64,000 nucleotides of DNA from Eledone cirrhosa (lineage: Eukaryota): the NCBI GenBank assembly GCA_964016885.1, contig OZ024741.1:393142001-393206000 (forward strand). Reading direction: 5' to 3'. Below are positions 4,601 to 53,893 of this stretch, piece by piece. Below the pieces are notes generated by a model. The model worked only from the letters and a program-made list of their open reading frames with translations, had not been told where the DNA came from and did no database searches. Both the position numbers and the translations under genes were made by a program. Numbering within the stretch: position 1 is the first letter of the stretch; each line of letters opens with the position of its first letter.

Positions 4601-4721
4601 GTAGAGAAGTGACACACGAGTTGATATATATAACGAAATAGTAAAAAAAGAAAAAAAAACAGTAGAAAATCCCTTTACCATTTTCTACTGTTTTTTTTTC
4701 CTCTTTTACTATATATATATC

Positions 4722-5022: not shown

Positions 5023-5034
5023 AGATATATATAT

Positions 5035-6795
5035 ATTATATTATTTATTTATGTTCATAGACGGAACAAAAGCACAACCTAAGGTTTCAAGGCCCAATAT
5101 CGACCATATCTTCAGAATGTAAGAGGGATCAAAGTTGTGACCTAATCTCTAGACACTTATACGAGCTTATAAGATACCATTAAAAGTAAAGTGTGCTAAA
5201 ACACTAGTTTACAAAATATGTCTTATAACAAATGGAAGCAAGTCCAAGATGTAAATTTGGAATAGTGTACTCATGTTAGTATCCGTGGGCTATAGCAGAT
5301 GTATGGTATTGTGTGGTTGTATATAATATAGAGATGATAATATTTATTAAGGTATTAAGTAGAATAGTATAGAACGTGTACTGTATTATGTAAGTGTGGA
5401 ACAAGAAAAAGGAAGCATAAAAAGGAAAGATATTAAGAAAGTATATAAATTAAATTAAGGTCGTTGAAAATCAGTTGAAATTGTTAAGTATTTCCATTTA
5501 GCAAGCAGTTGGCTTTTAAGATGGAGGCATTCTCTAAAAATTTTGCTCTATTAGTTCAAATAATTATTGTTCGAAGACGACAAACTATGTAATATTCTAA
5601 ATTTCTCACTAAGACAAAGACAACATCTCTTGGTACCATTGATGTAAGGTCTCGATCTTTCAAGTATCTTCCAAGTAATCTTATATGGGACTCCTTTCTC
5701 CTATAATTGCCAGACTTATTTTGCCAGGGCTGTACTGGTCCTCATATCAGATTCCTGAAGGAGTGGAGATACAAGTAAAAACATTTAAAATGATCTTGCA
5801 CTATACCGACATATCTTTCGCAAACTTCAGAACTTTCTGTTGTGTTGTGTGTAATCTCTGCCTCATACACAATGGATTTGATATAACATTTCTGTTGAAG
5901 AGGGCAGTTCTCTTTAATCAAACAAGAGCAACTTAGATTTATGCCAAGTATATTCTTTACAGTCATTTTTGATCTCATAGTTGGGCCACATGAATAGGAT
6001 ATGTTGATGGTATTACGATTGAATATTTTACTATATCTATATTGTGGTGGGAAATGTCTATCTAATAAATCTAAAAACTTCTTACCTACATTAGTCTTTA
6101 CTTTAAGGGAAAAGTGGGGTGCAAATCAGATAATTCTTCTTTTTCTGTTAGTATTTTTAGCATGGTTGGGTTAGGAACGATTGGGTGTGTACTTAATTAT
6201 GTCCTTAAAACCACTTTCTAGGAGGGTTTGGTTGTAGTAAGGTGCAGCCTTACGGAAAATCTCCCTGGTTGCTGATAGATTTGAGATCCTACGATTAATA
6301 TTAGAAACTAAACTTTTAAAAACTGCAGGGGCTGGCATGAGGCTTTATTAATATATTTCGATTATGTATGGTTTATACAAAACTGTGGTTAGGTCTAAGT
6401 TTACATCAATATTACATACCACCACACAATACCATACACCTGATGTAGCCCACTAATACTAACATCACACAATACCATACACCTGCTATAGCCCACCAAT
6501 ACTAACATATGTACAATACCATACACCTGCTATAGTCCACCAATACTAACATATGTACAATTTGGCTATTTCAAATGTACATCTTGGAGTTATTTCCTTT
6601 TGTTATAATACATTTTCATAAACTAGCTTTTTAGCATGCTTTACTTTTAACAGTATCTTACAAACTCGTATAATGTGCCTGAAGACTAGGTCACAATGCT
6701 GATCCCTCTTAGGTTCCGGAGATATAGTCAATATTGGGCCTTGAAACCTTAGGTAGCGCTTTCCTTATGTGTATGAACATAAATATATAATATAA
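5035..6795 (-). mobile_element. Penelope-like retroelement, 5'-truncated, with inverted pseudo-LTR
   Basis: Minus-strand decayed ORF: IIWFAPHFSLKVKTNVGKKF..., CSC....CPLQQKC...IVYEAEI...RYVG (GIY-YIG), ...WKILERSRPY...CCLCLSEK. 5040-5325 is an inverted homologue of ~6410-6790; a ~43-bp unit occurs x3 at 6425-6560. Confidence 0.88.
6675..6759 (+). ncRNA. Hammerhead ribozyme with long stem II in a Penelope pseudo-LTR
   Basis: GTGC-CTGAAGA-CT-AGGTC...GGCCT-T-GAAA-CCTTAGG-TA-GCGC; GUA triplet. Degenerate homologues at about 5071-5156(-) and 12811-12898(+). Confidence 0.65.
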
Positions 6796-6950
6796 AATAT
6801 CAGCTCTCTTCCCGATTGAACACCGTTTTCCTTTTGCTTTTTTCACACTTACTGATATTTCTACATATCCCCATCCTCATCATTTCCATTTAGCGTCAAT
6901 TCTTCTATGCTTGCATGGGTTAGACGGATATATATATATATATATATATA

Positions 6951-8861
6951 TTGGTCACCCGCATAGTTAACCAAGTCGTACAGAATGGGGTTGTTCCGAA
7001 GGACTGGCATAACAGCATCATCGTTAACTGTTATAAGGGTAAAGGAGACGCCCTAGATAGGAGTAACTATAGAGGCATTAAATTAATCGACCAGATCATG
7101 AAGGTCACGGAAAAAGTAATAGCGCAACTAATCAGAGAGAGAATTGACCTAGATGAAATGCAGTTCGGGTTTGTGTCAGGAAAAAGCACCACAGACGCTC
7201 TTTTCATAGTACGACAACTACAGGAGAAGTACCTAGCTAAAGGTAAACCCCTCTACTTAGCTTTTGTCGACCTGGAGAAAGCCTTCGACAGAGTCCCCCG
7301 CTCCATTATCTTGTGGGCTCTTAGAAAACTAGGCGTTGACGAATGGCTTGTGAGGGCTATACAAGCCATGTATAAAGAAACAGTCAGCAAGGTTAGAATT
7401 AACAACGAATATAGTGAAGAGTTTAGCGTAAAAGTTGGCGTCCATCAGGGCTCTGTTCTCAGCCCCCTACTATTTATTATTGCCCTTCAGGCTATAACAG
7501 AGGAGTTCAAGACAGGCTGCCCATGGGAACTCCTATACGCAGACGACCTGACACTCATAGCGGAATCAATGGCCGAGCTAGAGAAGAAATTCCAAACATG
7601 GAAGCACGGCCTAGAGTCAAAAGGACTTAAAATTAACCTGGCTAAGACCAAAGTTCTAGTTTGTAGGAAAGAAAACAAGGCGGCGGTCCCTTCTGGGAAA
7701 TGGTCGTGCTCGGTGTGTAGGAAAGGCGTAGGTAGAAACTCCATTTTATGTCCTAAATGCAAAGTATGGGTGCATAAAAGATGTAGTGGGATCACAGGTA
7801 AGCTAACTAAGAACATAGATTTTACATGTGGCCGGTGTTCTGGTGCAATAAGTAGCAGCAAGTGCCCACAAAATACTAGCTCTTTCAATTGCGCAGAGGG
7901 TTCTATAGAAATAGTGGACAGCTTCCGTTACCTGGGCGATAAAATCAGCAGTGGGGGAGGGTGCTCTGAAAGTACTGTAGCTAGAGTCAGAACTGGTTGG
8001 AAAAAGTTCAGAGAGCTTATACCACTATTAGCTGCTAAAGGGTTCTCCCTAAAAATGAAAGGCAGGTTGTACGATGCCTGCATACGAACAGCAATGTTGC
8101 ATGGCAGTGAGACCTGGGCATTGTGTGCAGAGGATATACGCAGACTAGAGAGGAACGAAGCTTGCATGCTCCGCTGGATGTGTAACAGTAATATACGTGA
8201 ACGGCAAAGCATAAACGAACTAAGGAAAAAATTAGAGATAAGAGGGATCAGATGTTGTTTACTCGAGAGAAGGCTACGTTGGTATGGACACGTGATGCGC
8301 ATGAAAGTCGATAGCTGTATAACAAAGTGCAGGGCAATAAAGATAGACGGTAGCCACGGAATAGGCAGACCTAGAAAAACCTGGGATGAGCTGATAAACT
8401 CCGACCTCACACACTTACACCTCTCCAAGACAATGTCACTGGACCGAGACCTTTGGCGGTACTCAGTAACAGAGAAGACCCGCCTTGCCAGTAGGCATCT
8501 CTAACAAAATACACCCCGTCCCGCCACCACCCCACCCCATCCACACCACCCCGTTCTATGTAAAGTTATGTTGGTGCCGCGCCATCCAGGCCGAAACAAA
8601 TGAGATCGTGTAGGTGTCACGACAAAAAAACACACAGTCCACGCTGTAATGTGGCCGTGTAGGCAACACGGTAAAAACCTCCCAGACCCACACTGTAAAT
8701 GCGGTTGGTGTTAGGAAGGGCATCCAACTGTAGAAAACCTGCCAGACAGCCCTATGCGAGCAAGACAATCACTCTTGCCTCAAGTGGGACTACCCCCGTC
8801 CAAACCCATGCAAGCGTGGAACACGGACGTTAAACGTTGATGATGATGATGATGATGATGA
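6951..8861 (+). mobile_element. Young 5'-truncated RTE-clade LINE (intact 517-aa RT remnant, 3'UTR, (GAT)n tail)
   Basis: NYRGIKL, QFGF, FVDLEKAFDRV, GVHQGSVLSPLLF, YADD, FRYLG, RRLRWYGHV, GRPRKTW; inserted in (TA)n. Confidence 0.97.
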
Positions 8862-8934: not shown

Positions 8935-8993
8935 GCTGTTATATATAGTTCGGTGATAATCGTTATACAATAGCTATGACCTCATCAGACAGC
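8935..8993 (-). ncRNA. Hammerhead ribozyme motif with A15.1>C (probably inactive)
   Basis: GCTGT-CTGATGA-GGTCATAG...TTATCACC-GAAC-T-ATAT-A-TA-ACAGC: 5-bp stem I, C-C mismatch at stem II position 4. Adjacent to a GIY-YIG fragment. Confidence 0.72.
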
Positions 8994-9049
8994 TAGAAGC
9001 TGAACAGAAAAAACTGAAAAACATAAAGAAAAAATAAAGCTTACTTCTG

Positions 9050-9900
9050 TTGTTTCAATTCATTGATACCAGAGCGTCATGTTCATGGATGCAACCTCTT
9101 GAGGTGAATTAACATACCAATTTAGAAAGGCCCTCAGAAAAATCTATCTAAATATCAAAGTGGTAGAAAAGCCAGGAACTACCATAAAATCCCTGATCAG
9201 TAAAACTTACCCCTTTAAGCAAACCCACTGCACAAATAAGAAATGTGTAATATGTAGAGTAAGTCCGCAAATAAATCGTAAAACTAGAAATGCAGTCTAT
9301 AGCATAAGATGCACAGTGGGTGCCTGCTGAAACATAACATACATGAGAGACACCAGACAGCCAGTAGCATATGAAAGAGAATAGATGAACGCTGGAGTGA
9401 ACTAAAAGGACAAAAAGGCAATTCAGTACTACATGAACAAGCCAGACGAAGACATGATGGGAAAATAGACAACATAAAAATCAAAGTAATATCTAAACAT
9501 AGAAATGACTTGACACTTAGACAAATTATGGAGGCTACAGAAATAGAATTAAGAAAACCTAGGCTGAACAGTACATATGAATGGCATAACAAACATACAC
9601 AATAGTGATCTAAGATAGAATATAAATATACACAGATGCAATAATAACACTCACACAAACACACTCTAGTGACCAAAAGTAGAATATAAACACATATACA
9701 CACACTCAGACACGAATACACAAGCGCACACCAAACGGAATACGCGCACACAAACACGTGGAAACAGAGACAACATAAATAAATAAATAAATAAATAAAT
9801 AAAATAAAAATCATTATAGGAACACAACAGGATGAAAAATGGAAACATGATAATCACTGATGATGTCAAAGATATGTGTGATGAAAGAACTTTGAAATAC
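9050..9900 (+). mobile_element. Penelope-like element fragment (GIY-YIG), second family
   Basis: IKVVEKPGTTIKSLISKTYPF..HCTNKKCVIC...AVYSIRC...LRQIMEA.EI....PRLNS.YEW, with frameshifts. Confidence 0.75.
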
Positions 9901-10734: not shown

Positions 10735-11343
10735 GAAAATAACTTGATGACCTATAGATCAGGGGAACACGCCAGCCAGATAGATTATATCCTTACTAGA
10801 AGACAGGACAAAGTGTCTGTTGTAAACACTAAATCCTTCCCCCATGAAGAATGCACCTCCCAACATAGCCTAGTAGTTAGTGACCTCATAGTCAGGAATA
10901 GACGTACTCGACGACAGAGGGGGACTACTTTGAGGAGAAGAATATGGAAGTTGAAGGATCCCACAGCCAGTGACAAATTTAAAAGCTTATTACTTGATTC
11001 TTTTGACAGTAAGGAAGAGCAATTAGAGACGTACAATGTAGAGGAACAGTGGGAATTCTTGAAAGTGAACCTGCTGAAGGTGATGGATGAAATCTGTGGC
11101 TGGAGCAGACCTATTGGGAGGAGGAGAGTAACTTGGTGGTGGAACAGACAATCAAGGCCAAAAAGCAGGCTTGGAAAGTATGGCAGGATGCGGGAAGTAG
11201 AGAACACTATCAAGTGGCCAGGAGAGAAGCTAGGAGACAAGTATACTTTGCAAAAAGGGAAGCAGAGGATAGAAAGTTCAAGCATGTTCTACAATGTGAG
11301 ATGTTTAGGATTGCGACACAATGTGTCAAGGAAAACCGTGATA
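10735..11343 (+). mobile_element. RTE LINE internal fragment (end of AP endonuclease and linker)
   Basis: TYRSG....QIDYIL...SQH.LVV.D...TWWW. Confidence 0.85.
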
Positions 11344-11714
11344 TTGCGTCCACTTTTCCCTGCTTGCAAGGGTGGGACGGGAACTGATTCTGGCTTGATT
11401 TCTACAGCTGGATGTCCTTCCTAACACCAACCTCATTTACAGTGAGTGCTGGGTGCTTTTTTGCCGTGGCACCTCCACGACCACTTTACAGTGTGGGCTG
11501 GGTGCTTTTTTGCCGTGGCACCTCAACGACCACTTTGCAGTGGAATGATAGGGACCCCAGTCCCTATCATCTCATTTCTACAGCTGAGTAAACTGGAGCA
11601 ATGTGAAATAAAGTGTCTTGCTCAAGGAAACAACACATCACCCGGTCTGAGAATTGAACTCACAACCTTTCGATTGCAAGGCCAATGCTCTAACCACTAA
11701 GCCATGTGCCTCCC
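11344..11714 (-). mobile_element. tRNA-derived CORE-type SINE with RTE-like 3' tail
   Basis: A box TGGCTTAGTGG, B box GAGTTCAATTC, CORE-like TCCTTGAGCAAGACACTT, tail shared with the RTE 3'UTR. Confidence 0.88.
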
Positions 11715-11715
11715 A

Positions 11716-12212
11716 ATTTTACATAATATTCTGAAATCTATGCCTGCTTCTGCAACTAACCATTTTGTCAATGATTATTTGTGGACCTTCCAGCAGACTT
11801 GAGCCACCTCCCATACAACAAATGTCACACAAGCCTGGTGCAGAGACCACCTTCCAAGGTACTGGTCAAAAGAAATGTGGCCTCCTCGTTTTCCTGATTT
11901 GAACCCTATGGACTTCTCAGTATGGTCTATCCTTAAAAAGCCTGTTCAAAAGTCCATAAGAAAGTCAATGATTTAAAGTCATCTTCACTGAGCACTTGGA
12001 AAGAAATTCCCCAAGAAATGTTGCGTACTTTGGTGAAAGATGTTCAACGGAAGTTAGGGGCTGTTATTGCTGCATGAGGGGTCATTTTGAATAAACTCTA
12101 TACATTATATTCTAAAGATATGTATAATTACGTATATATGTTGCTGGTCAATACAGTTAGTAGTTTTGTTATTAAAAGCATTTTTATTTGCTTCCAAACT
12201 TATGCCCCACCA
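11716..12212 (+). mobile_element. DD37D-like Tc1/mariner 3' fragment
   Basis: WTFQQ...HTTNVTQAWC...MWPP..PDLNPMDFSVWSIL. Confidence 0.82.
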
Positions 12213-14529
12213 TATACACACACACACATATATTAAGTAAAGCGATGAAGTTTCATTTAAATGTAGTTAGTTTTTTTTTTATTGTGTATTAATCTGTTGC
12301 ACACATTTTTGGCTGTAGGTCACCTTTAGAAGTCATGTACCTGACTCCATTATCCATCTGCTCTGGTGATCCAACAAAATATAGTGTTGTGATCTGTGAG
12401 ATGTTGGGTATATATAAACATCAGACTTATTTATTTTCATGGATGTGGGCATGTGTAAGTATTTGAGTGCATAGACAACGCTACACGTGCATATATATAC
12501 ATATTGTCATGTGCATCTGTGTACGTGTGTGTTTGTGCTTTTGTTATTAATTGTGATGTTTATATATGTGCATAAGTCACAGAGTAAATAAATATATAAA
12601 TGAATGAATGAATGGACTCGTCCATAATGAATATAATAATAATAATAAAAACACAACAATAGCAATAATAATATTGTGTATACATATATATGTACACACA
12701 TACACATGCACGCACACATACACACGCATATATATATTGATATATATATATAGTGGTGATTTGGGAAGAGAGCTGATATATTATATCATATGTTCATACA
12801 TGGAACAATAGCGCCTCCTAAGATTAGGTCACAATTTATATCCCTCTTATAATCTGGAGGTTCGGTCAATATTGGGCCTTGAAACCTTAGGCAGTGCTTT
12901 TGTTTCATGTATGAACATAAATAAATAATATAATATATATACAATACACACACACATATATATAACTCATTTGTTTGTCTGTTTGTTTCCAATGCATTTA
13001 AAAACCAATCATGTTCAAACTTGGCATGTGAGTTCCTTAGACTGAGGAATAGGTTTTCCTTACACTTGAACCTATATTTATTTGTTTATATGTTTGTTTG
13101 ATTGTCAATCTGTGGTAACGGTGACCATCATGAGTTATCGTCTTCACTATGATGGAATGTGATAGAAAATAGAGAGAATGAAGAAGTGAGAATTTGAGAG
13201 AATATCACCACACGTGAAATTAAATAGAGCGCTGAAAGTCAAAGATGGAACTAAGCAAGTTAACAATGCATGAATAAGGAGAGAAAGAAAGGGAGATAAA
13301 AAAAACCGAAGAAAGTGAGTGACGTGTTCAACATAGTAGCTGACACTAAAGTAACAAACACACGCTCGATTCAGTATTAAACATCCCCCTCTTTCTCTCC
13401 TGCATGAAAGGAAGTGCAACTAAAACAAGTGAGTGACACACATTCAATCAACATAAAGCAACAAGGCACGTCTGCTTTAATATCAAAATCCGCTCTCCCC
13501 TCTATTTGACTGCATCACATTTCATCATACATATTTGTAGGTGTCATGAGAAAAAAAACACACAGTCCACGCTGTAATGTGGCCGTGTAGGTAACATGGT
13601 AAAAAGTTCCCAGTTCCCACTGTAAATGTGGTTGGTGTTAGGAAGGGCATCCAGCCGTAGAAAACCTGCCAGATAGTCCTATATGAGCGAGACATGGTCT
13701 CCCGACAAACCTTGCCTCAAGTGGGACAACTCCTGTCTAACCCATGCTAGCGTGGAAAGTGGACATTAAACGATGATGATGATGATATTTTATATCTTAT
13801 ATCTACTTCATATTTAGCCAGTGAACAAAAACGACCTCCATACCATTCGAGGACATTGTGTTTGTATTTTAACACATGCTAAGGAAACTTAGTAAGTCGT
13901 AGATGTAGTTGGCATTACCATGACTACCTACATCCTTTTTCCAAATTCAAGTTTCTAGATAGAAGTTTTAAAATGGAGGCAATGAAGAGGAGTTCCAACT
14001 AGATCCTGTCAGCAAAATCTCCATATGGTTTCAATACACAACAAGCTTCCAATATACAAATGGCTAAATGTAAGCCAAAGGGCCCCCAGGAGTCATGACA
14101 TAAATGCGATTTGGATCCCTTAGAGTGTAAGACGTTAAGGGCCGAAACACTTGCTTGAGAGTGTGTGTGTGTGGGGGGTTCTTATCTGAAGAAATTCTGC
14201 TGTTCAGCTCTCCTGAGAGTTTCTTAATATATTCCCTCGGTGTGTGTATATATGCCACATTTTCATATATAGCTCCGTGTTGATCAGCCTCTCATTAAAT
14301 TTTGGGTTATTTATTTGATTTATACTACTAAAAATAACACATGTGAAACCTGTAATATTATTTTGCATATTAATTTCCATTAGTTTTTAGTTGTTGTTTC
14401 CGAAAAGTAACTGAGAGTTAATGCAGTTAGTCCTCATTCAACAAAATTTTACTTGACTTAAGTCCATCATTAACAGAAAAATTTTAAATGTTTAGATAAA
14501 TAATACTGACATTGGAAGCTGCAAGCAAA

Positions 14530-18918: not shown

Positions 18919-18959
<41 letters not shown>

Positions 18960-19081
18960 CAAAAGGGATATTTAATTTGTTGGTAATTCAACAAATATAT
19001 ATGTTTATAACTGATTTGAAGCACTTGACAGGATTTCTGGAGTATAATATTCAATGATATTAAATAAATGGAAACCATATT

Positions 19082-19142
19082 TATTCTATTATATATATTT
19101 CAAGGGTACCAACACTTTGGTACGCTCTCATCAGATAAAATA
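19082..19142 (-). ncRNA. Minimal type-I hammerhead ribozyme (inverted copy)
   Basis: Reverse complement of 19276-19336 with one change at the tip of stem II; intact CTGATGA/GAAA/TA core. Confidence 0.85.
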
Positions 19143-19275
19143 CAAAGTTTGTTTTATAAATATTGACATATCCAGGAAGATCTTAACGGTTCAAGTTTTT
19201 CCTGGATAGTCAGGAAAAACTTGAACCATTAAGATCTTCTTCCTGGTTATGTCAATATTTATAAAACAAACTTTG

Positions 19276-19336
19276 TATTTTATCTGATGAGAGCGTACCA
19301 AAGTTTTGGTACCCTTGAAATATATATAATAGAATA
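19276..19336 (+). ncRNA. Minimal type-I hammerhead ribozyme (Penelope-like)
   Basis: TATTTTAT-CTGATGA-GAGCGTACCAAA(GT)TTTGGTACCCTT-GAAA-T-ATAT-A-TA-ATAGAATA: 8-bp stem I, stem II with one C-C mismatch, intact core, AUA triplet, palindromic loop 3. Confidence 0.85.
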
Positions 19337-19381
19337 AATATGGTTTTATAAAAATAGTTTCCATTTATTTAATATCATTGA

Positions 19382-19415
<34 letters not shown>

Positions 19416-20477: not shown

Positions 20478-20753
20478 AAAAGAAATAAGTGACTATGTCA
20501 CTTATTTCTTTTCGGCGAAAGATGGGAGAGAAGCTGACAGTCTGTTTCATGCTTGTTGGTGTTCATCAGAGCCACGTACTCCTCTGCTTTCGTCGAAAAT
20601 CATAGAAGCTGGATTCTTATAGAATTCCAATAATAATCAGAAGCTGATTATACAGAGCGATTGCCAGTCCAGCAAAAATTAGGTATTAGAATTGGTGCTC
20701 TTGTCAGCTTCTCTCCCTTCTTTCGCCGAAAAGAAGTAAATGACATAGTCACT
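20478..20753. repeat. Inverted repeat (52-bp arms 20488-20539 / 20702-20753) plus a perfect 16-bp hairpin at 20478-20512
   Basis: Direct reading of complementary arms. Confidence 0.9.
20533..20572 (-). ncRNA. Degenerate minimal hammerhead (GUC site)
   Basis: GCT-CTGATGA-ACAC(CAACAA)GCAT-GAAA-CAG-A-CTG-TC-AGC. Stem II is restored as ACGC/GCGT if two CpG decays are reverted. Confidence 0.6.
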
Positions 20754-23479
20754 ACTTTAAAACTGATAGCGTATGGTCTTCTAAATGTTTTTAATTAAAC
20801 ATACGGTATATTGCCAAATATACTATACATACATTCATGTATACATCGCTATTTCAGAGCACCAATCCTAATATAGGTAGGTAAACAAATAGGTAGCTAT
20901 ATAGATAGATAGATCAATGTTTTTTCTTATTGTCCAAACTTCATATATATACATGTCTATATAAATAGAGGTTTAGTGTGTGCACACTGTATCATCTGGC
21001 CAGTGTGTGGTTCTATCATTTTGTTGATTTATCTGGGTTTCTCCCTATTCACTCTTTCTTTTCTTCTTTGTAGCTGCTTTCATTTCATTTTTAACCCTTT
21101 AGTTACCAATCTGGCCCAAACTGGCTCATTCTATGAAATAAAACCATCCGTTTTCAAGGTTTCCAATCTAAATTAAAATCTTCCAACATAATTTTATATA
21201 TGAACTTTACATATTTTAAAATATACCAAAGTTCTATATATCCTCTTTCAAAAGGAATTATCATAGTGCAAGTGTACAAACATTCAATGATACCTAGGTT
21301 TAAATGGATTGTCAAAGCTTTCTATTTATACAATAAATTATATATGCCACACTCATTTCCTCCTCTACCTTCCTATACTATCAGGGTTCTTAAGAAGTAG
21401 TGTAAGCCTGGTTTAATGCTGTTAACCAAATGGAAGATCAACTCTTTTGACAAGCCACCAGTCTATCACAGGTAGCATTCCCTGAAGATCTGGTACTTAT
21501 AACCTAGGCAATGCAAAATAAAGTGTTTTTCTAAATCCATAACTGAAACATTTACATCAGATGTAATTCTTACTGACCTGTCCACACAGAACTGCATTAG
21601 CAAAACATTATTGAAACGTAAAAAGCAACACTGTGACTGCATCACGTTAAAAATGAAAGTCTTTACTTTAATACTGCAAATTTTCACAATCTATCCACAT
21701 ATGAATTAGTAAACCTGGTTTGAAATATTTTATGTGAAATCATTACTAGTTGTATAAGTAGATACCGTAATATTGTATCTACTCAGTCACCTTATTTCTA
21801 TTATTGAACTAAAATAATTTCAAAATGACTGTTTTTTTTCAGGGCTTCTTATGTAATAAACAAGAAACCACTATGATTAGATCATCAACATGATGATCTA
21901 ATGAAGGGCAGAGGAAATAATTTATTCATTTGAGACCTTCCCTAAGAAATTACCTTCCAACAAATCAAATATCATTTTCATTAGTGTATGCCTAATTAAA
22001 AATGTAGATATATATTTAAAAGCATAATTTATCCTATAGAATGTAAGAGATGAAACAAGCATTACATATTCACATATAAATGTGAAAGCCTCACTTGCAA
22101 AATGCACTCATTAAGGAATTAAACAAAAACTTCCCTTGCTAGAAATAGCAACCAAATTCTCCTCAAACAACACCTTATCATCTTAAAAAAAGAAAGGACA
22201 CATTGTTTGAAATTAAGATGGAATGGACATGACTGGAATGTTGTGATCATGTTTTAGACCTAAAGCACTTAAGGCTAAACAATAACCGATGCATTCAAAA
22301 TGCTATTCTAAACAAACATTTACACACAAAACTGACAGAGGAAAGAAGCTTCAACACTCATAAAACGTAACTGTCTGATTTCTGATTTGACTGTTCCATA
22401 ACAAAGCCCCCTCATCATTTCTACAAGGCTCTACATTTTGTTAGTTTATTTTTAATGTTTCACCACCATGTTTTCATTTAATAAACTGGATAATTTTCGA
22501 TTAATTACATTTTCACTTTTTCATAAGCAATGTTGTGACATTCATCACTCGTATTATGTTTTTAATAATAAACTGAATAGTAACCACATTGACCATAACT
22601 TGTCTAGGCTCTCCTGGACAGAGGGAATATGTGAGTAGGGTGAGAGAGAGAGAGATGGCAGCTGTTTAAGAGAGAAGGAATTGGATATATCAGTTAGTAT
22701 GGAGTGCAGGAAGTAAAAGATACCATTGATGATGAGAGGAAAAGGTGTCTATGTGAAAATGGCTTAGTTAATAGTTTCAGAGAAATCAAAGCCTCCTTAG
22801 CAAAAGTAGTAGGAGGATAAAGCAAAACTCAATATTGAGGGTGTCAGTATTGTTTTGTGTGTCATATTAATGACTTTTTCACTAATTATGGGATAGAATG
22901 TATGTAATGACATCTGAAGAAGTGAAAAGTACATAAAACACATTTTTCTTAATGAGTTATTGATTGTTTAAGGCTAAAGTATTTTTCAGACCCCTAAAAA
23001 ATGTTAAAAAATTGCATCTTAAAATCTAGGTTACATGGAAATGATGATTATAGTTGTCGTTGCCAGTTGCATCATTGTTGTCATTGTCATCATCCTTATC
23101 ATTATTTTTACACCCGCTTTCCATGCTGGCATCAGTTGGACAAGTTGTCACATTCTGAGGCTTGACAGGTTTGATGACCTCATATTACTCATGTTCCCAT
23201 ATTTGGTATGATTTCTATAGCTTGGCATTACAGGGTGTACTAAGTGCATTTTTTCAAGGCACCAGCAATACCACTTTACAGAGTGGATTAGAAGCATTCT
23301 ATTGTAGCAACAGCACTAAAAACATTTTTACATAATAATCCAGAATGAAGAGTCCTGTCACATTCTTTATTGTTTTGGTTCAATTGCTTAATATTGTAAC
23401 CTTCAGTCTCTCATAAGGCTTTTTTATAATGCTGCTGTGGACAGGTCTTTTGAAATGTGACATATTGCGAGTGGGCTCT

Positions 23480-28300: not shown

Positions 28301-29291
28301 ACAATTTGTACATACTATCACACTTTATGCTATATGAATATTCACCATTACATATGAGAATGTGCAGTATGGTCTTCAGTCAACAGTAAGTCTTGAACAA
28401 TTGATTGCCTCTGTGCCATATATATGCTCAATCAGAACTAGCTGGCCTAGGGTTCACAATAAAAATAATAACATAAAATATTGATTTTTATTCATATATC
28501 ATCCCTGCCAGTGCCTTTCAAACAAGTACAACTCCTGTAAACATTGTGCACTACAAACTTCAAAATGACAAAGTGTCATGCAATATATGACAATAACTTG
28601 AGAGAAAAACATGCCATAAGATGAATAGGATGTAGTGTGCAGGAGGGAAGAATGTATTGATGCAGGCATATGATGCAAATGGAGGCTGACAGTTGGGGAA
28701 AGAAGTGTTATGAGATTGAATTGGAATTAACCCGCAGAAAAGAACACCTAGAAGGACATGGGACCATGATACATAACAAGACACTATGTTGGAGAATACC
28801 TGTCCAACAAAAGTAAGCATGAGAATACCAACATAAAAATAAACGTGATAATCATTTTATGGTCATTTTCCCTGATAGCAAGGGTTAAATGAGTTGTCAC
28901 AAATTAAATCAGTAGTGTTGGAGCTACTGACCTTTCATTCCCACACTCTTCAGAGTGTATTGGGTGCATGTTATTATGGCACCAGTTCTAAAGAAGTTGT
29001 CATGTTTATGACACAACTGAAGAGTCATTTTAAATAAGTTTGTCAGGTTTTCTACAACTGGATGCCCTTCCTATCAGTAACAACTTTACAGAGTGTAGTG
29101 AGTGTTTCTATTGTGTAGATAATAAACATGAGGGAGGTCGTCATACCTTTGACACAACTAAAGTGTCTTCTCAACCCACTTTTTGCTTGGTTTCTACAGC
29201 TGGATACCTTTCTCTCTCTCTATATATATATATATAGAGGGGGGGAGGGGAGAATTAAAGTTTTTACTCCAACATAGCTGTATAGATATAA

Positions 29292-29607
29292 GTATGTGAA
29301 TTTTGTATATCTAATGATATACGGTGTGTTTACAAATAAACATTTGAAAAGCTCTTTAACTATGAATATTGAAAAGCTGACAGCTAGTACCATCTAACGG
29401 ATTGCAGCAGAGAGCAGGACGGGGGAAACATTGTCCTGATGTCGGCCTGAGCCAGAAACGAGTTGGCAGTTATCCCCCTCTACTGCTTCTGCTGGGATCT
29501 GCTAAATGGCGCTAGCTGTCAGGTTTTCAATATTCATACCTAGAGGGCTTTCTGAATGTTTATTTCTAAACATACCATGTATCATTAGATATACAAAATT
29601 CACATAC
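29292..29607. repeat. Older foldback element with ~144-bp diverged arms
   Basis: GTATGTGAATTTTGTATATCTAATGATA... pairs with ...TATCATTAGATATACAAAATTCACATAC through to TTGTC/GGCAG. Confidence 0.9.
29432..29468 (+). ncRNA. Degenerate minimal hammerhead at the tip of a ~145-bp hairpin
   Basis: TGTC-CTGATGT-CGGC(CTGA)GCCA-GAAA-CGAG-TT-GGCA. One core change (A9>T); stem I is continuous with the foldback arms. Confidence 0.5.
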
Positions 29608-29807
29608 ATAGATATAAATTGAAGTAGTAGCTGCAATAGGGCAGATACCAATTAAATTATTTGAGGCAGTCACAGAGTACTCAATGGTGTGAAGAGTTAA
29701 TAAATTTTTCGACCAGAGTTAACACATGAAGTTATATAAGGGTGACGCTATGAACATATTGACAAGGTGTATGTAGGAATAGTAAATAACCACAACAACA
29801 AATTATA

Positions 29808-30811
29808 TATCATCATCATCATCAACGTTTAACGTCCGTGTTCCACGCTTGCGTGGGTTTGGACGGGGGTATTCCCACTTGAGGCAAGAGTGATTGTCTT
29901 GCTCGCATAGGACAGTCTGGCAGGTTTTCTACAGTTGGATGCCCTTCCTAACACCAACCACATTTACAGTGTGGGTCTGGGAGGTTTTTACCGTGTTGCC
30001 TACACGGCCACATTACAGCGTGGACTGTGTGTTTTTTGTCGTGACACCTACACGATCTCATTTGTTTCGGCCTGGATGGCGCGGCACCAACATAACTTTA
30101 CATAGAACGGGGTGGTGTGGATGGGGTGGGGGTGGTGGTGGTGGTGGGACGGGGTGTATTTTGTTAGAGATGCCTACTGGCAAGGCGGGTCTTCTCTATT
30201 ACTGAGTACCGCCAAAGGTCTCGGTCCAGTGACATTGTCTTGGTGAGGTGTAAGTGTGTGAGGTCGGTGTTTATCAGCTCGTCCCAGGTTTTTCTGGGTC
30301 TGCCTATTCCGTGGCTACCGTCTATCTTTATTGCCCTGCACTTTGTTATACAGCTATCATCCTTCATGCGCATCACGTGACCATACCAACGTAGCCTTCT
30401 CTCTAGTAAACAACATCTAATCCCTCTTATTTTTAATTTTTTCCTTAGTTCGTTTATGCTTTGTCGTTCACGTATATTACTATTACACATCCAGCGGAGC
30501 ATGCAAGCTTCGTTTCTCTCTAGTCTGCGTATATCCTCTGCACACAATGCCCAGGTCTCACCGCCATGCAACATTGCTGTTCGTATGCAGGCATCGTACA
30601 GCCTGCCTTTCATTTTTAGGGAGAACCCTTTAGCGGCTAATAGTGGTATAAGCTCTCTGAACTTTTTCCACCCAGTTCTGACTCTAGCTACTGTACTTTC
30701 AGAGCACCCTCCCCCACTGCTGATTTTGTCACCCAGGTAACGGAAGCTGTCCACTATTTCTATAGAACCCTCTGCGCAGTTGAAAGAGCTAGTATTTTGT
30801 GGGCACTTGCT
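29808..30811 (-). mobile_element. Same young RTE LINE family, shorter 3' fragment
   Basis: ORF 30164..30754 is nearly identical to the C-terminus of 6951..8504; same 3'UTR and tail. Confidence 0.96.
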
Positions 30812-31360
30812 ATATATATATGTAATGTGGCCGTGTAGGCAACACGGTAAAAACCTCCCAGACCCACACTGTAAATGTGGTTGGTGTTAGGAAGGGCATC
30901 CAACTGTATAAAACCTGCCAGACAGTCCTATGCGAGCAAGACAATCACTCTTGCCTCAAGTGGGACTACCCCCGTCCAAACCCATGCAAGCGTGGAACAC
31001 GGACGTTAAACGTTGATGATGATGATGATGATATAGTTATATATAGTTATACTTTTAGAGGGTCATGTTGCCAATAAAAACACACACACCTGTTGGTTTT
31101 CACTTCAATTTATTATAAATTTTACACACCTCTCCCATCAGAGTCCCCAGCCCACACTGTAAAGTGGTCATGTAGGTGGCATGACAAAAAGAACACACTG
31201 TAAATGTGGTTGGTGTTAGGAAGGGCATCCAGCCATAGAAAGCAGGTCAAAATCAGTTCTGTATGAGAAAAACAATGGGACAACTCATCTAACCCATGCT
31301 AGCGTGGAAAAATGAACATTAAATGGTGATGGTGATGATGATGATGATGATGATGATATA

Positions 31361-38910: not shown

Positions 38911-39453
38911 CTAACACATTTATGACTGTTTGGTTAAGAAGTTTGCTTCGCAAACACAAAGTTTTAGGTTCAAGCTATGGACATAGCATTTTCGGTAAAT
39001 GTCTTTGACAATCTTAGACCAACCAATGCAAAGGAATTTGGTAGGTGGAAACTGAGGAAACATGTTGTATATGTCTGTGTATCCCCATGCTTCTTAATAT
39101 CAACCATATTTAAAAGAGTGACAATTGTTTATGTCTTGCATAAACAAAACCCCATAGCTTAACAGTATGACAGAGTGCAGCAGTATATACATATTTAAAA
39201 ATAAAGTTGGTGTCAGAAAGGGCATTCAGCTGAAAGAAAACTACCTCAAAAGAATTTTGTCTAACACAAAACCAACATGAAAGAGTAGGTGATTATGATA
39301 TATATATATATATTTAAAAGTTAAACAAGGTTCAATGAATACATCAAAGAATGAGTTTTACAATAGATTGGAAGCACTCAACAGTAATGGTTTTCCAGAG
39401 TTATTAATATTAATTCAAAATATTAACAAAATAGATATTCTTGTGATCAAGTA

Positions 39454-39520
39454 TATTTTATTATACATATTTCAGAGGTACTGAGTTAAGTTCAACAGTA
39501 TGTCCTCATCAGATAAAATA
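39454..39520 (-). ncRNA. Minimal type-I hammerhead ribozyme (inverted copy, sense to the CCDC9 pre-mRNA)
   Basis: Reverse complement of 39624-39690 with one CpG-type change in stem II; core intact. Confidence 0.8.
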
Positions 39521-39623
39521 AGATGATGCATGACATACCCTGACATAGTAGATGGTTAAGATTCATGACTACCATGACTGAATCTTAACCATCTACTATG
39601 TCAGGGTATGTCATGCATCATCT

Positions 39624-39690
39624 TATTTTATCTGATGAGGACGTACTGTTGAACTTAACTCAGTACCTCTGAAATATGTATAATAAAATA
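39624..39690 (+). ncRNA. Minimal type-I hammerhead ribozyme
   Basis: TATTTTAT-CTGATGA-GGACGTACTG(TTGAACTTAACT)CAGTACCTCT-GAAA-T-ATGT-A-TA-ATAAAATA: perfect 8-bp stem I, stem II with C-C mismatch. Confidence 0.85.
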
Positions 39691-39730
39691 TACTTGATCA
39701 CAAGAATATCTACTTTGTTAATATTTTGAA

Positions 39731-39780
<50 letters not shown>

Positions 39781-44898: not shown

Positions 44899-45817
44899 CT
44901 TGGAAAGAGAGACTAGATTATATTGTGGACTAATTTTTCTACAAACAAACAAAACATACAGACAGCAACATTTGCATTCAACAAGATGCAAAACTATACT
45001 CAATCCTCAAATACTAAAGCAAAGATTGTGATTAGCAGAGGCTTCTGTTGGATATCCCAGGTATGAGACTCCTATTTAGACAGTTATGGCAGAGGTGCCT
45101 GTTTCACATATGTGTGTTTTGTCCTTTCCTCATAATGACAAAACAGCTTTATCTGGATATCCCTGCTTTCTCTATACAGCTAAGATGGTTCCCCAAATTA
45201 TGTATTCTTACCTAAACTTGTCATTCACTGACTGTTCACCCTGATACAAATGCAACCAAATGAATCTGCTGTAAATGTTGTGATCAAACAGCCTAGGATA
45301 TAAGGCTGTCACTCCAATACTTGCTGTCCTCTCCACTGAAGAATTGCTGACTGTGAACATCTTTTTGGTATTGCTTATTGTGATTAGCAATTAAAATTTG
45401 GACATCCATGAATGAAAACTGAAAACTACCACAAGCAACTCCAAATATATGTATAGAGAAACTAAGTTGAATCTATACAATAGGTCATTTTCAAACCACC
45501 ATTTGACTCAAATAATTACAGGTAAGAAAAAAAATTCAAGGTACTTGTTTTTGTAAGTAAAGTATAAAGTTTTTGAAAATCATATTCCCTTAGAAGAAGA
45601 ATGATATTTCAGACCTCTCAAAGTGTGGTAATGGTGAAGAATTAAAATTTCTGCAGAAATTTTAATTCTTCACTACTTTTACACTTCAGTACATGAAGAA
45701 CACAAAAATATTTTTCTCTCTCTGATAAAGGAGTTAGTCCAAAATCTCAGGAAACTCTTCTTCCAACAACATACAAACATGAAAAGCTTAGTACTTTATC
45801 AAATAATTACAACTTAC

Positions 45818-48299: not shown

Positions 48300-50866
48300 C
48301 AATATATATATATATAATTAATACACCTCTCAAAGGCGATGACACACGACCGTGACCTCTGGCATCACGCAATAATACAGAGTACCCGACCTCCCATGGG
48401 TACAAGCTGAAGCATATAGACAATATGCCCCCACACCCCCCACTGCAAGGTGGTCGTGGAGGTGCCACAGCAAAAAAGCACCCAGCCCACACTGTAAAGT
48501 GGACGTGTAGGCGCCACGGAAAAGCACCCAACACTCAGTGTAAATGAGGTTGGTGTTAGGAAGGGCATCCAGCTGTAGAAATCAAGCCAATTCAGTTCCT
48601 GTATGAGCAAGGCATGGTCAGCCGACCAGACACTGCCCACAACAGGACAACCCGTCTAACCCATGCTAGTGTGGAAGAACGGACGTAAAACGGTGATGAT
48701 GAAGAACAAGGTGTCAGAGTACCATCATTAAGTTTATTCAGGTGTGACATGTGTTCCACTATTGTTCAGCTCAAGGTTTGATCTGTATTACTCATGCCCG
48801 ACTCTGGAATAAAAGGCTCATCAGACTCTTGGTCTGTTAATGATGGGAGATATCCTATCTGCTTACAGCTTAAAAAAAACATTTCTCATTCAATTGGGGT
48901 ATTCTGTCGTTCTTTGTTTTTATTGGTTGTTTGGGGTAGAAAGATGTAGAAGATTACACCACCTAGCGTCGTCTTTGGAGGCAGTCGATTAACTGCCCTT
49001 AGTTCTGACGTCAGTAGCTGAATAAACCCTCTTCGGCTTTTGTATCTCGAGGTGAACAGACGTGTTTTCACAGCAACGAAACAGCGACATCACATCATGC
49101 GGTCACAGGATAATTGAAGACCGCTAATTAATGATAATTGGCAATTATCATTAATAACTGAGAGGCTTCAAGGGTAAAGAATCTGCTTTGGTGTTGATTT
49201 GGGTTCTTAATCTCTTTGGGGTGGTTGGCTTTAAATGTTTTCTGCCAGGGTCATTTGGTTGACCATAGCTATATTTTATGTTGTCATGTATATTGGTATA
49301 GTTATCAGAACATACACACAAGCACATATACAAACAAACCCGACACATGTGTATACGGGTTCACACACATGCGAGGACATGATTACATATATATATATAC
49401 ATTGACTATTCAATCTCTTGGAGAACGATTTCGAAAGCGCCCGCATACCGAAATATGGCTCTGTCAGGAATTTGTCATTTATGTATTGAAGAAATATTTC
49501 ACATAATTACCAATCAAAAAGAAAGTATTATTTAACTCTTGTTTGCATCATCAGTCTAAGACTTTTGGAAGTATCTATAATCTATAGAAAATATTATCTA
49601 TAGCCTCTATATCTCACCTGTTTACATTTTATATGTCTTCGCCGTGCTTTGTTGGGTTTTTTGTGATGTTTTTAAATGATATTTTTGAATGTATTTTTTT
49701 TTTGCGATGCTTTTGATATTTTCGAATATACTTTGGATGACTGTAGAATTTTTTCCTAATAGACTCTATAGGCATTGTAAATCCATACATACAAATACTT
49801 AATATCATTAAACTTATGCATAGATTATAAGGAATGTTATCAAAATACGTACAAAAATTTTTATCTTAGAAAATATGTAATATATGATACTATAAAATAA
49901 TTTTTCCATATATCATAATTAGAATATTATTTTGAAGTAAATTCTAGAATAAACGGTAAACATAACTTAACTATCTAAACTAAGAAATATTAGTTATCTT
50001 TTCCTTTGAAATACAACACACATTTTTTCTAAGTAACAGGTAAACTTTACGTAAATATTAAAAGTCATTAAAACTTCGTAAATTTATTCCTATCTAGATG
50101 CAACTATTGAATATATAAAATAGTGTACATCTTCTATACTAAAATAGAACTACTTAAACCATATATTGAAAATGTAAACAAAAATTATCGTAACTCTTCA
50201 TATATAAAAAATATAAAAAATATATAAATTATCTATCCATTAGAAAAAAAACATATATACTCACCAAAATTATTTATATATATATATAACTAACCTGTCG
50301 TAATATAATAAAATAAAATATACTTACAACTCTAATCTTCATAAAATATACTTATAAATACTATCTTTATAAATACTATTTAAAACACACCAATAGAATA
50401 GACCCAATCGTATATATGATTACAATATTTCTCACTCTTTAAATTAATATTCCCTCACTTTAACAGTTATAATTCTCACATTATATTATAGATACTCCCA
50501 AAATATAAAATTAAATAATAAAATAAATATAATTATTTCACTCTCTCTACACCCTCACAAATATGCTCCATACAATTATATACATATATTCCTATTAATA
50601 GTCTATTAACTCTAATATATTTCTTCTCGTACACTTTCCTTAAATTTCTTCCACCCTAATAATAACCTCTATTTCCTTTTCCTTTAAAAATAATCCTAAT
50701 AATTATTTAAATTTACCTAGCGTCTAAACATAACTATCTTTTTCAATTTTAACATTATCCTCATTAGCATATTCATCCTACGATTTGAAGTTCTTCACTA
50801 TTCAAACAGAACTCAAAACGTTAAGTTCTAGTTTTGAATATGTCACTATCTGTAAAACAACTTTTG

Positions 50867-50927
50867 TATTTTATCTGATGAGAGCATACTAAAAATGTTG
50901 GTACCCTTGAATATATATAATAAAATA
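50867..50927 (+). ncRNA. Degenerate hammerhead of the 19.1-19.3 kb family (GAAA shortened to GAA)
   Basis: TATTTTAT-CTGATGA-GAGCATACTAAAAATGTTGGTACCCTT-GAA-TATATATA-ATAAAATA; flanks similar to 19211-19370. Confidence 0.7.
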
Positions 50928-50953
50928 AATATGGTTTTATAAAGATAGTTTCC

Positions 50954-51075
50954 ATTTAGTTTATAACAGATTAGAAGCAATCTACAGGATTTTTTCTGGA
51001 GTATAATATTAATATTATTGATATTATACTCCAGAAAAAATCTGTAGAGTGCTTCTAATCTGTTATAAACTAAAT
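50954..51075. repeat. Inverted repeat (~56-bp arms) of the same family as 18960-19060
   Basis: ATTTAGTTTATAACAGATTAGAAGCA...CTGGAGTATAATAT / ATATTATACTCCAG...TGCTTCTAATCTGTTATAAACTAAAT. Confidence 0.85.
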
Positions 51076-52223
51076 TTGTTGAATAACCAACAAATTAAAT
51101 AACTCATTGCTTATAGATATTGGTGTTCTTGACAATATCCAAATGTAGTAAAGGAATGAGGTTAAAATGTATCACTTTAAAAAATTATATCTTTAGTTAT
51201 AAAAACATTTTACTAAATGCTACTTGTCTTATATAGCTGTTCTATTGTGTCTTTACTAGTTCTATGAAACAAAGCCACCCATTTTAAAGTGCTCCAATTT
51301 ACATTAAAATCTTCCATCATTATCATCATCATTTAAGGTTTTCTCTGTTAGTCAGTACTCAAGTGATGTCACTGACTTTTCTGATGAGCTAGGGGTATGC
51401 ATCTTGCTTACATATATTCCATACTCTACGAAGTGCATTTTCTCATAACACTAGCACTAAGGAGATTGTCATGTCTTTGATACAACTAAAGAGACCATCC
51501 AACCCTTTGTTTCGCAAGCTGTCTTTGGCCTGATGCCTTTCCTACCATCAACCATTTTGCAGAGGGAACTGGGTGTTTTTATCATGTACATCACTAACAC
51601 TAGGGAAGTTGTCATGTCTTTGACACAACTGAAGAGACTATCCAACCCTTTGGCAAGCTTTCTACGGCTGTACTGGGTGTGTTTATCCTGTAGAATACCA
51701 ACACTAGAGAGGCTGTTATGTCATTGATACAACTGAAAAGTCCTCTGGACCCTTTCTAGCAGGATACCCTTCCTATCGCCAACCATTTATAGGGTACACT
51801 GGATGCATTTTTCATGGCACCAGCACTAGACAGGTTGTCAGTCATTGACTCATCTGTAAAGACTTTTCAACCCTATGGGAGAGACGGAAGATAATATTAT
51901 TGGTGTATGATGAGTGTGGTGCAATTTAACAGGGTGATGAGTAGGAGAGGGGTGTGACCTTCGATAGCATGAGGGATCATTAAAATTGCTAAGGTAACTT
52001 TCTATCGTCCTCACTTTTTTATTCTTCTATCTACTTTCTCAAATTCTTATTACGTTGACATGTTTACCTAACACACATTGTTGAGCTTTCAAATAACCAA
52101 ACTTATTTCCTAGTCATATTTATGTCATATTCCACAATGCTTCAAGCAAACTACAACATTCTATATGTATTCACACACACATATATACACATGCACTTAC
52201 ATATATATATATATATATATATA

Positions 52224-53893
52224 TCAGGGCTCTGTTCTTAGCCCCCTACTATTCATTATTGCTCTTCAGGCTATAACAGAGGAGTTCAAGACCGGCTGCC
52301 CATGGGAACTCCTATACGCAGATGACCTAACGCTCATAGCTGAATCAATGGCCGAGCTAGAGAAGAAATTCCAAACATGGAAGCACGGCCTAGAATCAAA
52401 AGGCCTTAAAATTAACATGGCTAAGACTAAAGTTCTAGTTTGTAGGAAAGAAAATAAGGCGCTGGTCCCTTCCGGGAAATGGCCATGCTCAGTGTGTAGG
52501 AAAGGCGTAGGTAGAAACTCCATTTTATGTCCCAAATGCAAAGTATGGGTGCATAAAAGATGTAGTGGGATCACAGGTAAGCTAACTAAGAACACAGATT
52601 TTACATGTGGCCGGTGCTCTGGTGCAATAAGTAGCAGCAAGTGCCCACAAAATACTAGCTCTTTCAACTGCGCAGAGGGTTCTATAGAAATAGTGGACAG
52701 CTTCCGTTACCTGGGTGACAAAATCAGCAGTGGGGGAGGGTGCTCCGAAAGTACAGTAGCTAGAGTCAGAACTGGATGGAAAAAGTTCAGAGAGCTTATA
52801 CCACTATTAGCCGCTAAAGGGTTCTCCCTAAAAGTGAAAGGCAGGTTGTATGATGCCTGCATACGAACAGCAATGTTGCATGGCAGTGAGACCTGGGCAT
52901 TGTGTGCAGAGGATATACGCAGACTAGAGAGGAACGAAGCTTGCATGCTCCGCTGGATGTGTAATAGTAATATACGCGAACGGCAAAGCATAAACGAACT
53001 AAGGAAAAAATTAGAAATAAGAGGGATCAGATGTTGTTTACTCGAGAGAAGGCTACGTTGGTATGGTCACGTGATGCGCATGAAAGACGACAGCTGTATA
53101 ACAAAGTGCAGGGCAATAAAGATAGATGGTAGCCACGGAGTAGGCAGACCCAGAAAAACCTGGGACGAGCTGATAAATTCCGACCTCACACACTTACACC
53201 TCTCCAAGACAATGTCACTGGACCGAGACCTTTGGCGGTACTCAGTAACAGAGAAGACCCGCGTTACCTAAATACAAAGTAAAACCTACTACAGTCAGTA
53301 GGCATCTCTAACAAAATACACCCCCGTCTCACCACCCCCACCCCATCCACACCGCCCCTTTCAATGTAAAGTTATGTTGGTGCCATAAAATCCAGGCCGA
53401 AACAAATGAGATCGTGTAGGTGTCACGAAAAAAAAAACACACAGTCCACGCTGTAATGTGACCATGTAGGCAACACAGTAAAAACCTCCCAGTTCCACAC
53501 TGTAAATGTGGTTGGTGTTAGGAAGGGCATCCAGCTGTAGAAAACCTGCCAGACAGTCCACGCTGTAATGTGGCCGTGTAGGCAACACGGTAAAAACCTC
53601 CCAGACCCACACTGTAAATGTGGTTGGTGTTAGGAAGGGCATCCAGCTGTAGAAAACCTGCCAGACAGTCCACGCTGTAATGTGGCCGTGTAGGCAACAT
53701 GGTAAAAACGTCCCAGTCCCACACTGTAAATGTGGTTGGTGTTAGGAAGGGCATCCAACTGTAGAAAACCCGCCAGACAGTCCTATGCGAGCAAGACAAC
53801 CACTCTTGCCTCAAGTGGAAAAACTCCCGTCCAAACCCATGCTAGTATGGAACACGGACGTTAAACGATGATGATGATGATGATGATGATGAT
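52224..53893 (+). mobile_element. Same young RTE LINE family; 3'UTR contains a 112-bp unit x3 (53441-53776)
   Basis: ORF from QGSVLSPLLF is near-identical to the 6951 copy; starts at (TA)n; (GAT)n tail. Confidence 0.96.

Follow-up and report, generated by a model that had tools for sequence, protein, structure and literature searches.

The hairpin at positions 29292-29607 of the window (the whole 64-kb stretch of DNA analysed here) consists of two decayed copies, joined head-to-head, of the ribozyme-bearing end of a repeat that is abundant and built like a Penelope-like element (PLE). The loop between the two copies holds a degenerate hammerhead core, and the joint between them appears to lie in, or just outside, an extended form of the ribozyme's own stem I. 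The mechanism, which is read wholly from end products, is considered below; our leading but tentative reading, held at somewhat less than an even chance, is that two cDNAs started on opposite strands of one target cut and annealed via this extended stem I, giving a head-to-head truncated pair. The locus has the following features:

29210-29250, no strand: (CT)n(TA)n microsatellite and G-rich run, the likely target at the left end, judged from the sequence and the neighbours of other copies
29251-29291, minus strand: 'tail' of 41 nt by which the left copy alone is extended, belonging to the family according to run depth
29282-29291, plus strand: left copy of an exact 10-bp direct repeat, inside the tail
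29292-29411, minus strand: copied part of the left arm, in which the sequence following the ribozyme is repeated in inverted, 5′-truncated form (identity in 101 of 120 columns)
29412-29435, plus strand: probable native 5′ strand of the extended stem I, with a G5 tract (29421-29425), an internal loop and the proximal strand (29431-29435); 17 of 25 columns identical, boundary inferred
29436-29464, plus strand: decayed type I hammerhead core with A9 changed to T, a short stem II, GAAA, a short helix III and a GUU triplet
29465-29607, plus strand: right arm, in which the 3′ strand of stem I (29465-29479, with a C5 tract at 29474-29478) is followed by downstream sequence as far as the main 3′ terminus, from alignment and run depth
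29608-29617, plus strand: right copy of the 10-bp direct repeat, AT-alternating, the start of another repeat

A hammerhead core in the loop of the hairpin

The original prediction described a hairpin with arms of about 144 bp around a 29-nt hammerhead core, and its coordinates proved exact. The left arm (29292-29435, 144 nt) and the right arm (29465-29607, 143 nt) are identical in 118 of 145 alignment columns (81%), and the outermost 28 columns are all identical (permutation p 0.0016). The loop (29436-29464) reads CTGATGT, C, GGC-CTGA-GCC, A, GAAA, CGAG, TT and is closed by TTGTC/GGCAG. The GAAA box, the NUH triplet and a stem I that closes the core are all present, and as RNA the pair probabilities are 0.8-0.99 for stem I and 0.84-0.89 for the 3-bp stem II. 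Cleavage is predicted between 29464 and 29465; with T at 29442, this copy of the ribozyme is presumed dead. The core also deviates from the canonical one just before GAAA, where the G10.1-C11.1 pair would be expected to adjoin and an extra A (or a C-A mismatch) follows stem II; the 40 of 197 variant rows listed contain no variant at this place.

A strict descriptor, fitted around the core of this hairpin, matched once in the 64 kb on both strands, at 29436-29464, and 0.02 times per window in 150 shuffles. With a relaxed descriptor, the score of 29436-29464 was reached 1.4 times per shuffled window (60 shuffles). The hammerhead model of Rfam gave no match in the whole window or in 29400-29500; the other hammerhead motifs of the window were equally unmatched, so that Rfam is a weak test for such minimal forms. 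In a scan with the hammerhead pattern, viral contigs yielded 0 loci and metagenomes 3, none of them alike beyond the pattern. The chance level thus depends on the descriptor, and taken alone the motif is suggestive of a hammerhead, short of proof; decisive are the letters of the repeat family.

The differences between the arms gave no sign of selection for an RNA rod (G-U bias 11 vs 6, p 0.33). A coding role of the arms was rejected: their three short open frames have no match in Pfam, and the frame is interrupted in the relative at 20702. No close second copy of the hairpin was found inside the 64-kb window.

The repeat family in other sequence data

Four runs were aligned to 29250-29795 at 80% likeness. 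X1 and X2 are two contig sets from one sample, possibly the source of the window, and X4 and X5 are RAD read sets from other individuals; they gave 1282, 1346, 499 and 514 records, respectively, with those of a separate repeat in the right flank included. Depth is given as summed contig depth, which is not copy number, and the rows listed comprise 40 of 197 variants, 15 of 38 joints, 24 of 667 loose ends and 16 of 2731 pieces.

At position 29442, A is found instead of T in 10 contigs of X1 and 10 of X2 (depth 96.9/119.6 and 111/146.6) and in all 4 X4 reads at this position, which is not covered in X5. This restores the CTGATGA core that had been predicted for the family, which thus has the CUGANGA box although the hairpin copy has T. 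At position 29461, 6 + 7 contigs carry C instead of A, which makes helix III palindromic.

Among the loose ends listed, those behind 29411 (22 + 23 contigs and 33 reads) lead into the 3′ strand of stem I, then helix III and GAAA, all in reverse complement, and therefore the arms consist of sequence downstream of the ribozyme and it is the left arm that is inverted. Arms lying 3′ of the ribozyme and joined head-to-head are as an event at the cDNA level predicts, the origin that had been proposed. Non-inverted copies of the family, which had also been expected, exist: one 486-nt contig aligns only from 29443 on, as such a copy should. A 281-nt contig (X1 record 4) spans arm, loop and arm with 34 other letters and 12 gaps and is a probable second hairpin of the same kind. 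One contig joint could be placed precisely; it connects 29314 to 29585 with 7 letters between, is symmetric and lies 23 nt from the terminus. The remaining 14 of the 15 joints listed (38 in all) were not placeable to the base and were excluded from the breakpoint count.

The depth in X1 was about 11000-12000 at the terminus (10918-12118) and about 115 over the core (111-129 in the loop), that is, about 1% of the terminus, with the 80% likeness cut-off itself lowering the inner depth. The family is abundant and mostly 5′-truncated, and its depth is highest at the 3′ terminus.

A probable joint at an extended stem I

The arms had been interpreted as a direct extension of stem I. The match of 29292-29435 with 29465-29607 holds, but within the left arm the ~24 nt next to the loop probably represent native, imperfect stem I rather than a copy. 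Whereas the outer 120 columns contain 15 transitions, 4 transversions and no gaps, the inner 25 columns contain 2 transitions, 3 transversions and 3 gaps (p 0.025 versus the outer arm). A listed family variant is available for 15 of the 19 outer differences, and in 15 of 15 cases it is the letter of the other arm (8 left-private, 7 right-private). The outer arms are two copies that have drifted about equally. Depth at 29428 versus 29417 is 111.5 versus 65.6 in X1 and 130.1 versus 96.3 in X2, a step that is consistent with non-inverted copies sharing the G5 tract and diverging just outside it.

Proximal stem I is weak in cDNA because its G-U pairs turn into A-C. On the cDNA strand its pair probabilities are at most 0.35, compared with 0.88-0.98 for the G5/C5 tract, and the calculated duplex energy is -1.8 kcal/mol for the proximal part and -9.9 kcal/mol with the G/C tract. 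These values speak against the short native 5-bp stem I as the primer, the role it had originally been given. We infer a joint at 29412-29430, in or just outside the extended native stem I. Native pairing of 21-30 nt between upstream and downstream sequence was also found at four other hammerheads of the window (11, 39, 103 and 3 of 3000 shuffles), a comparison that is partly circular, stem I being selected.

Ends, tail and flanks

Family sequence extends to the left as far as 29251, and the arms that begin at 29292 are not the limit of the element; the tail had been overlooked in the original prediction. In X1 the depth was 10918 at 29288-29306, 4949 at 29269-29287 and 966 at 29250-29268. Contigs among those listed run unbroken from 29254-29272 to 29403-29411, and in each run 40-42 contigs extend beyond 29251. 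The tail is found on the left side only; the right arm has none. Other copies of the family that end near 29295 or 29254 adjoin (TG) or (TA) runs.

The 10-bp direct repeat is no more than a candidate for a target-site duplication. The left copy sits in the tail, both copies are AT-alternating, and shifted controls match at 6-7 of 10 positions, yet both have G where the family has C (at 29285, C in 5339/6011 of the depth). The reading of this repeat as the target duplication of a 316-bp unit was withdrawn. The right flank (29613-29740) is a separate multi-copy repeat with an X1 depth of about 2000-2500 at 29649-29686.

Other hammerhead-bearing inverted elements in the window

Further inverted elements were found by a relaxed hammerhead scan and self-comparison of the window, and 6 inverted junctions from at least two families were compared. 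One of the 6, that of 29292-29607, folds at stem I; in 3 of 6 a breakpoint lies no more than about 35 nt from the start of the core, and the other 3 lie elsewhere. The more general claim of the original prediction, that stem I serves PLEs as the priming hairpin, is not supported by this comparison: stem I is one usable joint hairpin among several, not the rule.

The element at 20488-20874 is a distant relative of 29292-29607, with alignable downstream sequence (0 of 2000 shuffles). Its minus-strand core begins at 20569. Of its two copies, the one on the plus strand has its start at 20702, 4 nt ahead of the position of the cut site, and the other reaches 132 nt upstream; a LINE remnant interrupts the left arm. 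The sequence upstream of the core at 20569 opens with 17 of 18 letters of the element's own tail (23 of 3000 shuffles). This match hints at a unit of about 316 nt, which we treat as a lead only.

The elements at 19047-19385 and 39407-39737 belong to a second family, in which stem II is long; each has a left-hand tail of ~90 nt. Both fold 53-76 nt upstream of the core, at a palindrome that is also present in the copy starting near 50785. The first fold-back (18958-19390 in all) is head-to-head, lies between microsatellites, carries one hammerhead per arm, at 19134 (minus) and 19284 (plus), and has a 6-nt loop ~75 nt upstream of the core. The second (39313-39777) is young, with 157/159 identical arms, hammerheads in opposite arms at 39512 (minus) and 39632 (plus) that both look intact, and a 13-nt loop; its tail is on the left and a long (TA)n on the right. 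The copy at 50785-51120, also of the second family, begins at the upstream palindrome and has its hammerhead at 50875; near its 3′ end, 96 nt beyond the cut site, it folds internally (51015), and the tail follows.

The short inverted copy at 8884-~9000 has a degenerate hammerhead core (8988), begins 5-15 nt upstream of it and ends in (TA)n. It stands head-to-head with a broken PLE-like ORF remnant at 9004-9602 (linker with CX4CxxC, GIY-YIG region), and a weak direct copy lies at ~9559-9649. HMMER found 143 relatives of the ORF remnant; of 10 scanned, 4 matched GIY-YIG and 1 RT, weakly, and a word-index protein search with 9103-9327 gave no match. The remnant belongs to another family than the hairpin at 29292-29607. 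The motifs at 20569 and 8988 have descriptor scores at chance level and are supported by homology and context.

Possible origins of the head-to-head pair

The two copies of 29292-29607 face outward and share the sequence that follows the ribozyme; the left copy extends 41 nt beyond the right one at its outer end, and the core has the sense of the right copy. In vitro work on another PLE, PAc, has described that both target strands are cut and extended, that reverse transcription starts at two sites bounding the tail, that a dimer is predicted, and that ribozyme cleavage is not needed for insertion (PMC11167929). By analogy, the protein of the present family would have cut and extended both target strands and started reverse transcription at two tail-delimiting sites. 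Starting at the inner site, the right cDNA would have included the uncleaved ribozyme and stopped a little beyond the 5′ strand of stem I (perhaps at the 5′ end of the RNA), and the left cDNA would have started at the outer site. The 3′ end of the right cDNA could then have paired with the left cDNA over the G5/C5 part, a flap, if any, being trimmed, and both would have been extended; the later, about equal drift of both arms is visible in outline. Stem I would act here as one of several native joint hairpins, and catalysis would not be required. Such a two-primer scheme permits the loop to be in either copy and also fits the asymmetric junctions at 20702 and about 8993-9003. On the other hand, symmetric hairpins with loops of 6-13 nt and near-identical arms (157/159 at 39407-39737) fit a plain fold-back equally well, and five sites have the same letter in both arms while part of the family differs, as a single template would give.

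A single cDNA that had passed the ribozyme, paired with itself via the extended stem I and copied itself, one tail being trimmed at resolution, is a real but doubtful possibility, and an amended form of the original prediction. It explains that the arms are downstream sequence and that the core is kept in the loop, and it agrees with the symmetric small-loop hairpins at 19047-19385 and 39407-39737 and the symmetric contig joint from 29314 to 29585. The available text of PMC3846280 already proposes self-priming at pLTR palindromes, and that of PMC8557442 ascribes the tails to endonuclease resolution. The proximal stem I is, however, unstable in DNA, and the junction near 9000 would require a loop-back of >600 nt. 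The tail is a further difficulty. Under target-primed synthesis, the loop belongs to the primary cDNA, which here is the right, tail-less copy; coming from the inner site, it has no template for the left tail, so that an extra trimming step is needed. In its simple form, the fold-back of a target-primed cDNA is not supported, as it would make the tailed arm the copy. Whether the loop and the tail belong to the same copy discriminates between fold-back and two-primer models, and such cases can be scored in any assembled genome. The loop belongs to the tail-less copy at 29292-29607 and 39407-39737 (24.5 vs 12.0, weak alignment) and to the tailed copy at 19047-19385 (39 vs 29, weak alignment); the three scorable cases of the window stand 2 to 1 against the simplest fold-back, two of them on weak alignments. 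What endures of the self-priming interpretation is the CTGATGA core, the origin of the arms and the non-inverted copies, while the short stem I primer, the simple fold-back and the generality of the process were not upheld.

It is quite unlikely that stem I had no pairing role at all and that the copies, ending at the 5′ end of the RNA just upstream of the ribozyme (or at the cut site), were joined by microhomology or end-joining, the agreement with stem I then reflecting where the template begins. The copy at 8884-~9000, which starts 5-15 nt upstream of the core yet joins the interior of an ORF, would suit this explanation, as would the 20702 copy with its start 4 nt before the cut-site position and a 4-nt match, and the fall in depth between 29428 and 29417. 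At 29292-29607, however, the left arm takes over in the register of the stem, leaving a hairpin without unpaired spacer, and the same crossing occurs in one more contig (X1 record 4). A later inverted duplication of a single insertion at the DNA level, by break repair seeded at the stem I hairpin, seems very improbable. Self-annealed DNA ends do give inverted duplications at L1 sites, according to the part of 10.1101/2024.12.14.628481 at hand, but here the left arm ends in a family tail that is absent on the right, the host flank is not duplicated, and the same layout is repeated in other elements of the window. Even less credible is a MITE or Mutator-type DNA transposon, in which a constant unit of 316 bp would be bounded by long terminal inverted repeats and flanked by a 10-bp target duplication. 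The exact 10-bp direct repeat at both ends and the perfect outer 28 bp (permutation p 0.0016) resemble one, but the family continues past the left 'end', where the left repeat copy is family sequence, and with a loop depth of ~1% of the terminus most copies do not continue into the loop. The hairpin is not the multiplied unit, and this reading is largely refuted.

Comparison with known elements

Insertions of endonuclease-positive (EN+) Penelope-like elements, as described in the accessible portions of PMC3846280 and PMC8557442, have a pLTR with a hammerhead, an adjacent inverted 5′-truncated copy and a one-sided tail of 30-40 bp. At 29292-29607 an inverted 5′-truncated copy is joined head-to-head, and the one-sided tail is present as 41 nt (29251-29291). 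As to the 8-10 bp target duplication or microsatellite target of such elements, the locus has microsatellite neighbours and a 10-bp repeat that on the left is part of the tail. The locus further resembles such insertions in the hammerhead ~140 nt from the terminus, the AT-rich or (TA)n neighbours and the hairpin at the junction. Unlike the insertions described in those portions, the hairpin copy has no ORF and its junction hairpin is the ribozyme's own stem I. The layout seems to work like a PLE end, the family being a candidate rather than a proven member: no ORF ties it to an autonomous element, and the hairpin copy contains no ORF for a telomerase-like RT or a GIY-YIG endonuclease. The architecture of inverted copy and tail is published and common, and this single locus is a real, ordinary insertion of PLE type.

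PAc, the Poseidon element of Anolis carolinensis, is similar in vitro: its two termini both lie beyond the ribozyme and delimit a tail, and the uncleaved ribozyme is copied (PMC11167929). From cut site to first terminus the distance is 143 nt here and 85-92 nt (by subtraction) in PAc; a further difference is that the present core contains no recognisable ORF start. The main text of the PAc study contains no model for inverted copies.

In the parts of PMC4209133 that we could compare, both the minimal hammerheads of PLEs and canonical metazoan type I hammerheads share with the present family CUGANGA, GAAA, the base between 9 and 10.1 and a short palindromic helix III. The PLE minimal forms have a stem II of 7-8 bp, whereas the 3-bp stem II found here is closer to canonical type I; the extra A, or C-A mismatch, at the base of stem II distinguishes the present core from both groups.

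Non-LTR retrozymes have monomers of ~300 bp, according to the available sections of PMC7229834 and bioRxiv 10.64898/2026.07.22.740005. A canonical-like type I hammerhead, coding capacity of which none was found and the hint of a ~316-nt unit at 20488-20874 recall these elements as they are described there (PMC7229834; 10.64898/2026.07.22.740005). The present copy is inverted and not head-to-tail, and it is known from DNA alone. With regard to the head-to-tail units of a few hundred nt that retrozymes form, each with a type I hammerhead, there are the 18-nt tail match at 20569 and, among the joints listed, four that go back, the letters between them not being readable.

Small insertions such as this one record the joint, and they bear on how PLEs acquire their inverted copy and one-sided tail and on the role of their hammerhead. 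One speculative and unlikely combination is that a ~316-nt unit of retrozyme type was inserted by Penelope machinery as two oppositely primed cDNAs, with the extended helix I kept partly as a programmed annealing site. If true, programmed annealing would be a second, non-catalytic job for the hammerhead helix and would explain the inverted pLTR and one-sided tail of PLEs. Within the literature searched, which covered few subscription papers and no supplements, no publication identified stem I as the joint or formulated a two-primer model of PLE inversions; the accessible parts of PMC6962438 and 10.1101/2024.12.14.628481 added little.

Further repeats in the window

A third family is represented at 5028-5335, 6500-6810 and 12815-12945. 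Its copies have a degenerate hammerhead-like motif and an AT-rich end, and the first two stand head-to-head ~1.2 kb apart. Two further short hairpins (45621-45686 and 4623-4721) showed no hammerhead core. LINE remnants are plentiful in the window, and we take them to be RTE-type and cephalopod-like in look. Three LINE copies (6924-8504, 29809-31030 and 52114-53890) are young, being 91-96% alike, and have an RT frame with a cysteine-rich insert; the copy at 29809-31030 lies between 209-bp inverted repeats that are 98% identical.
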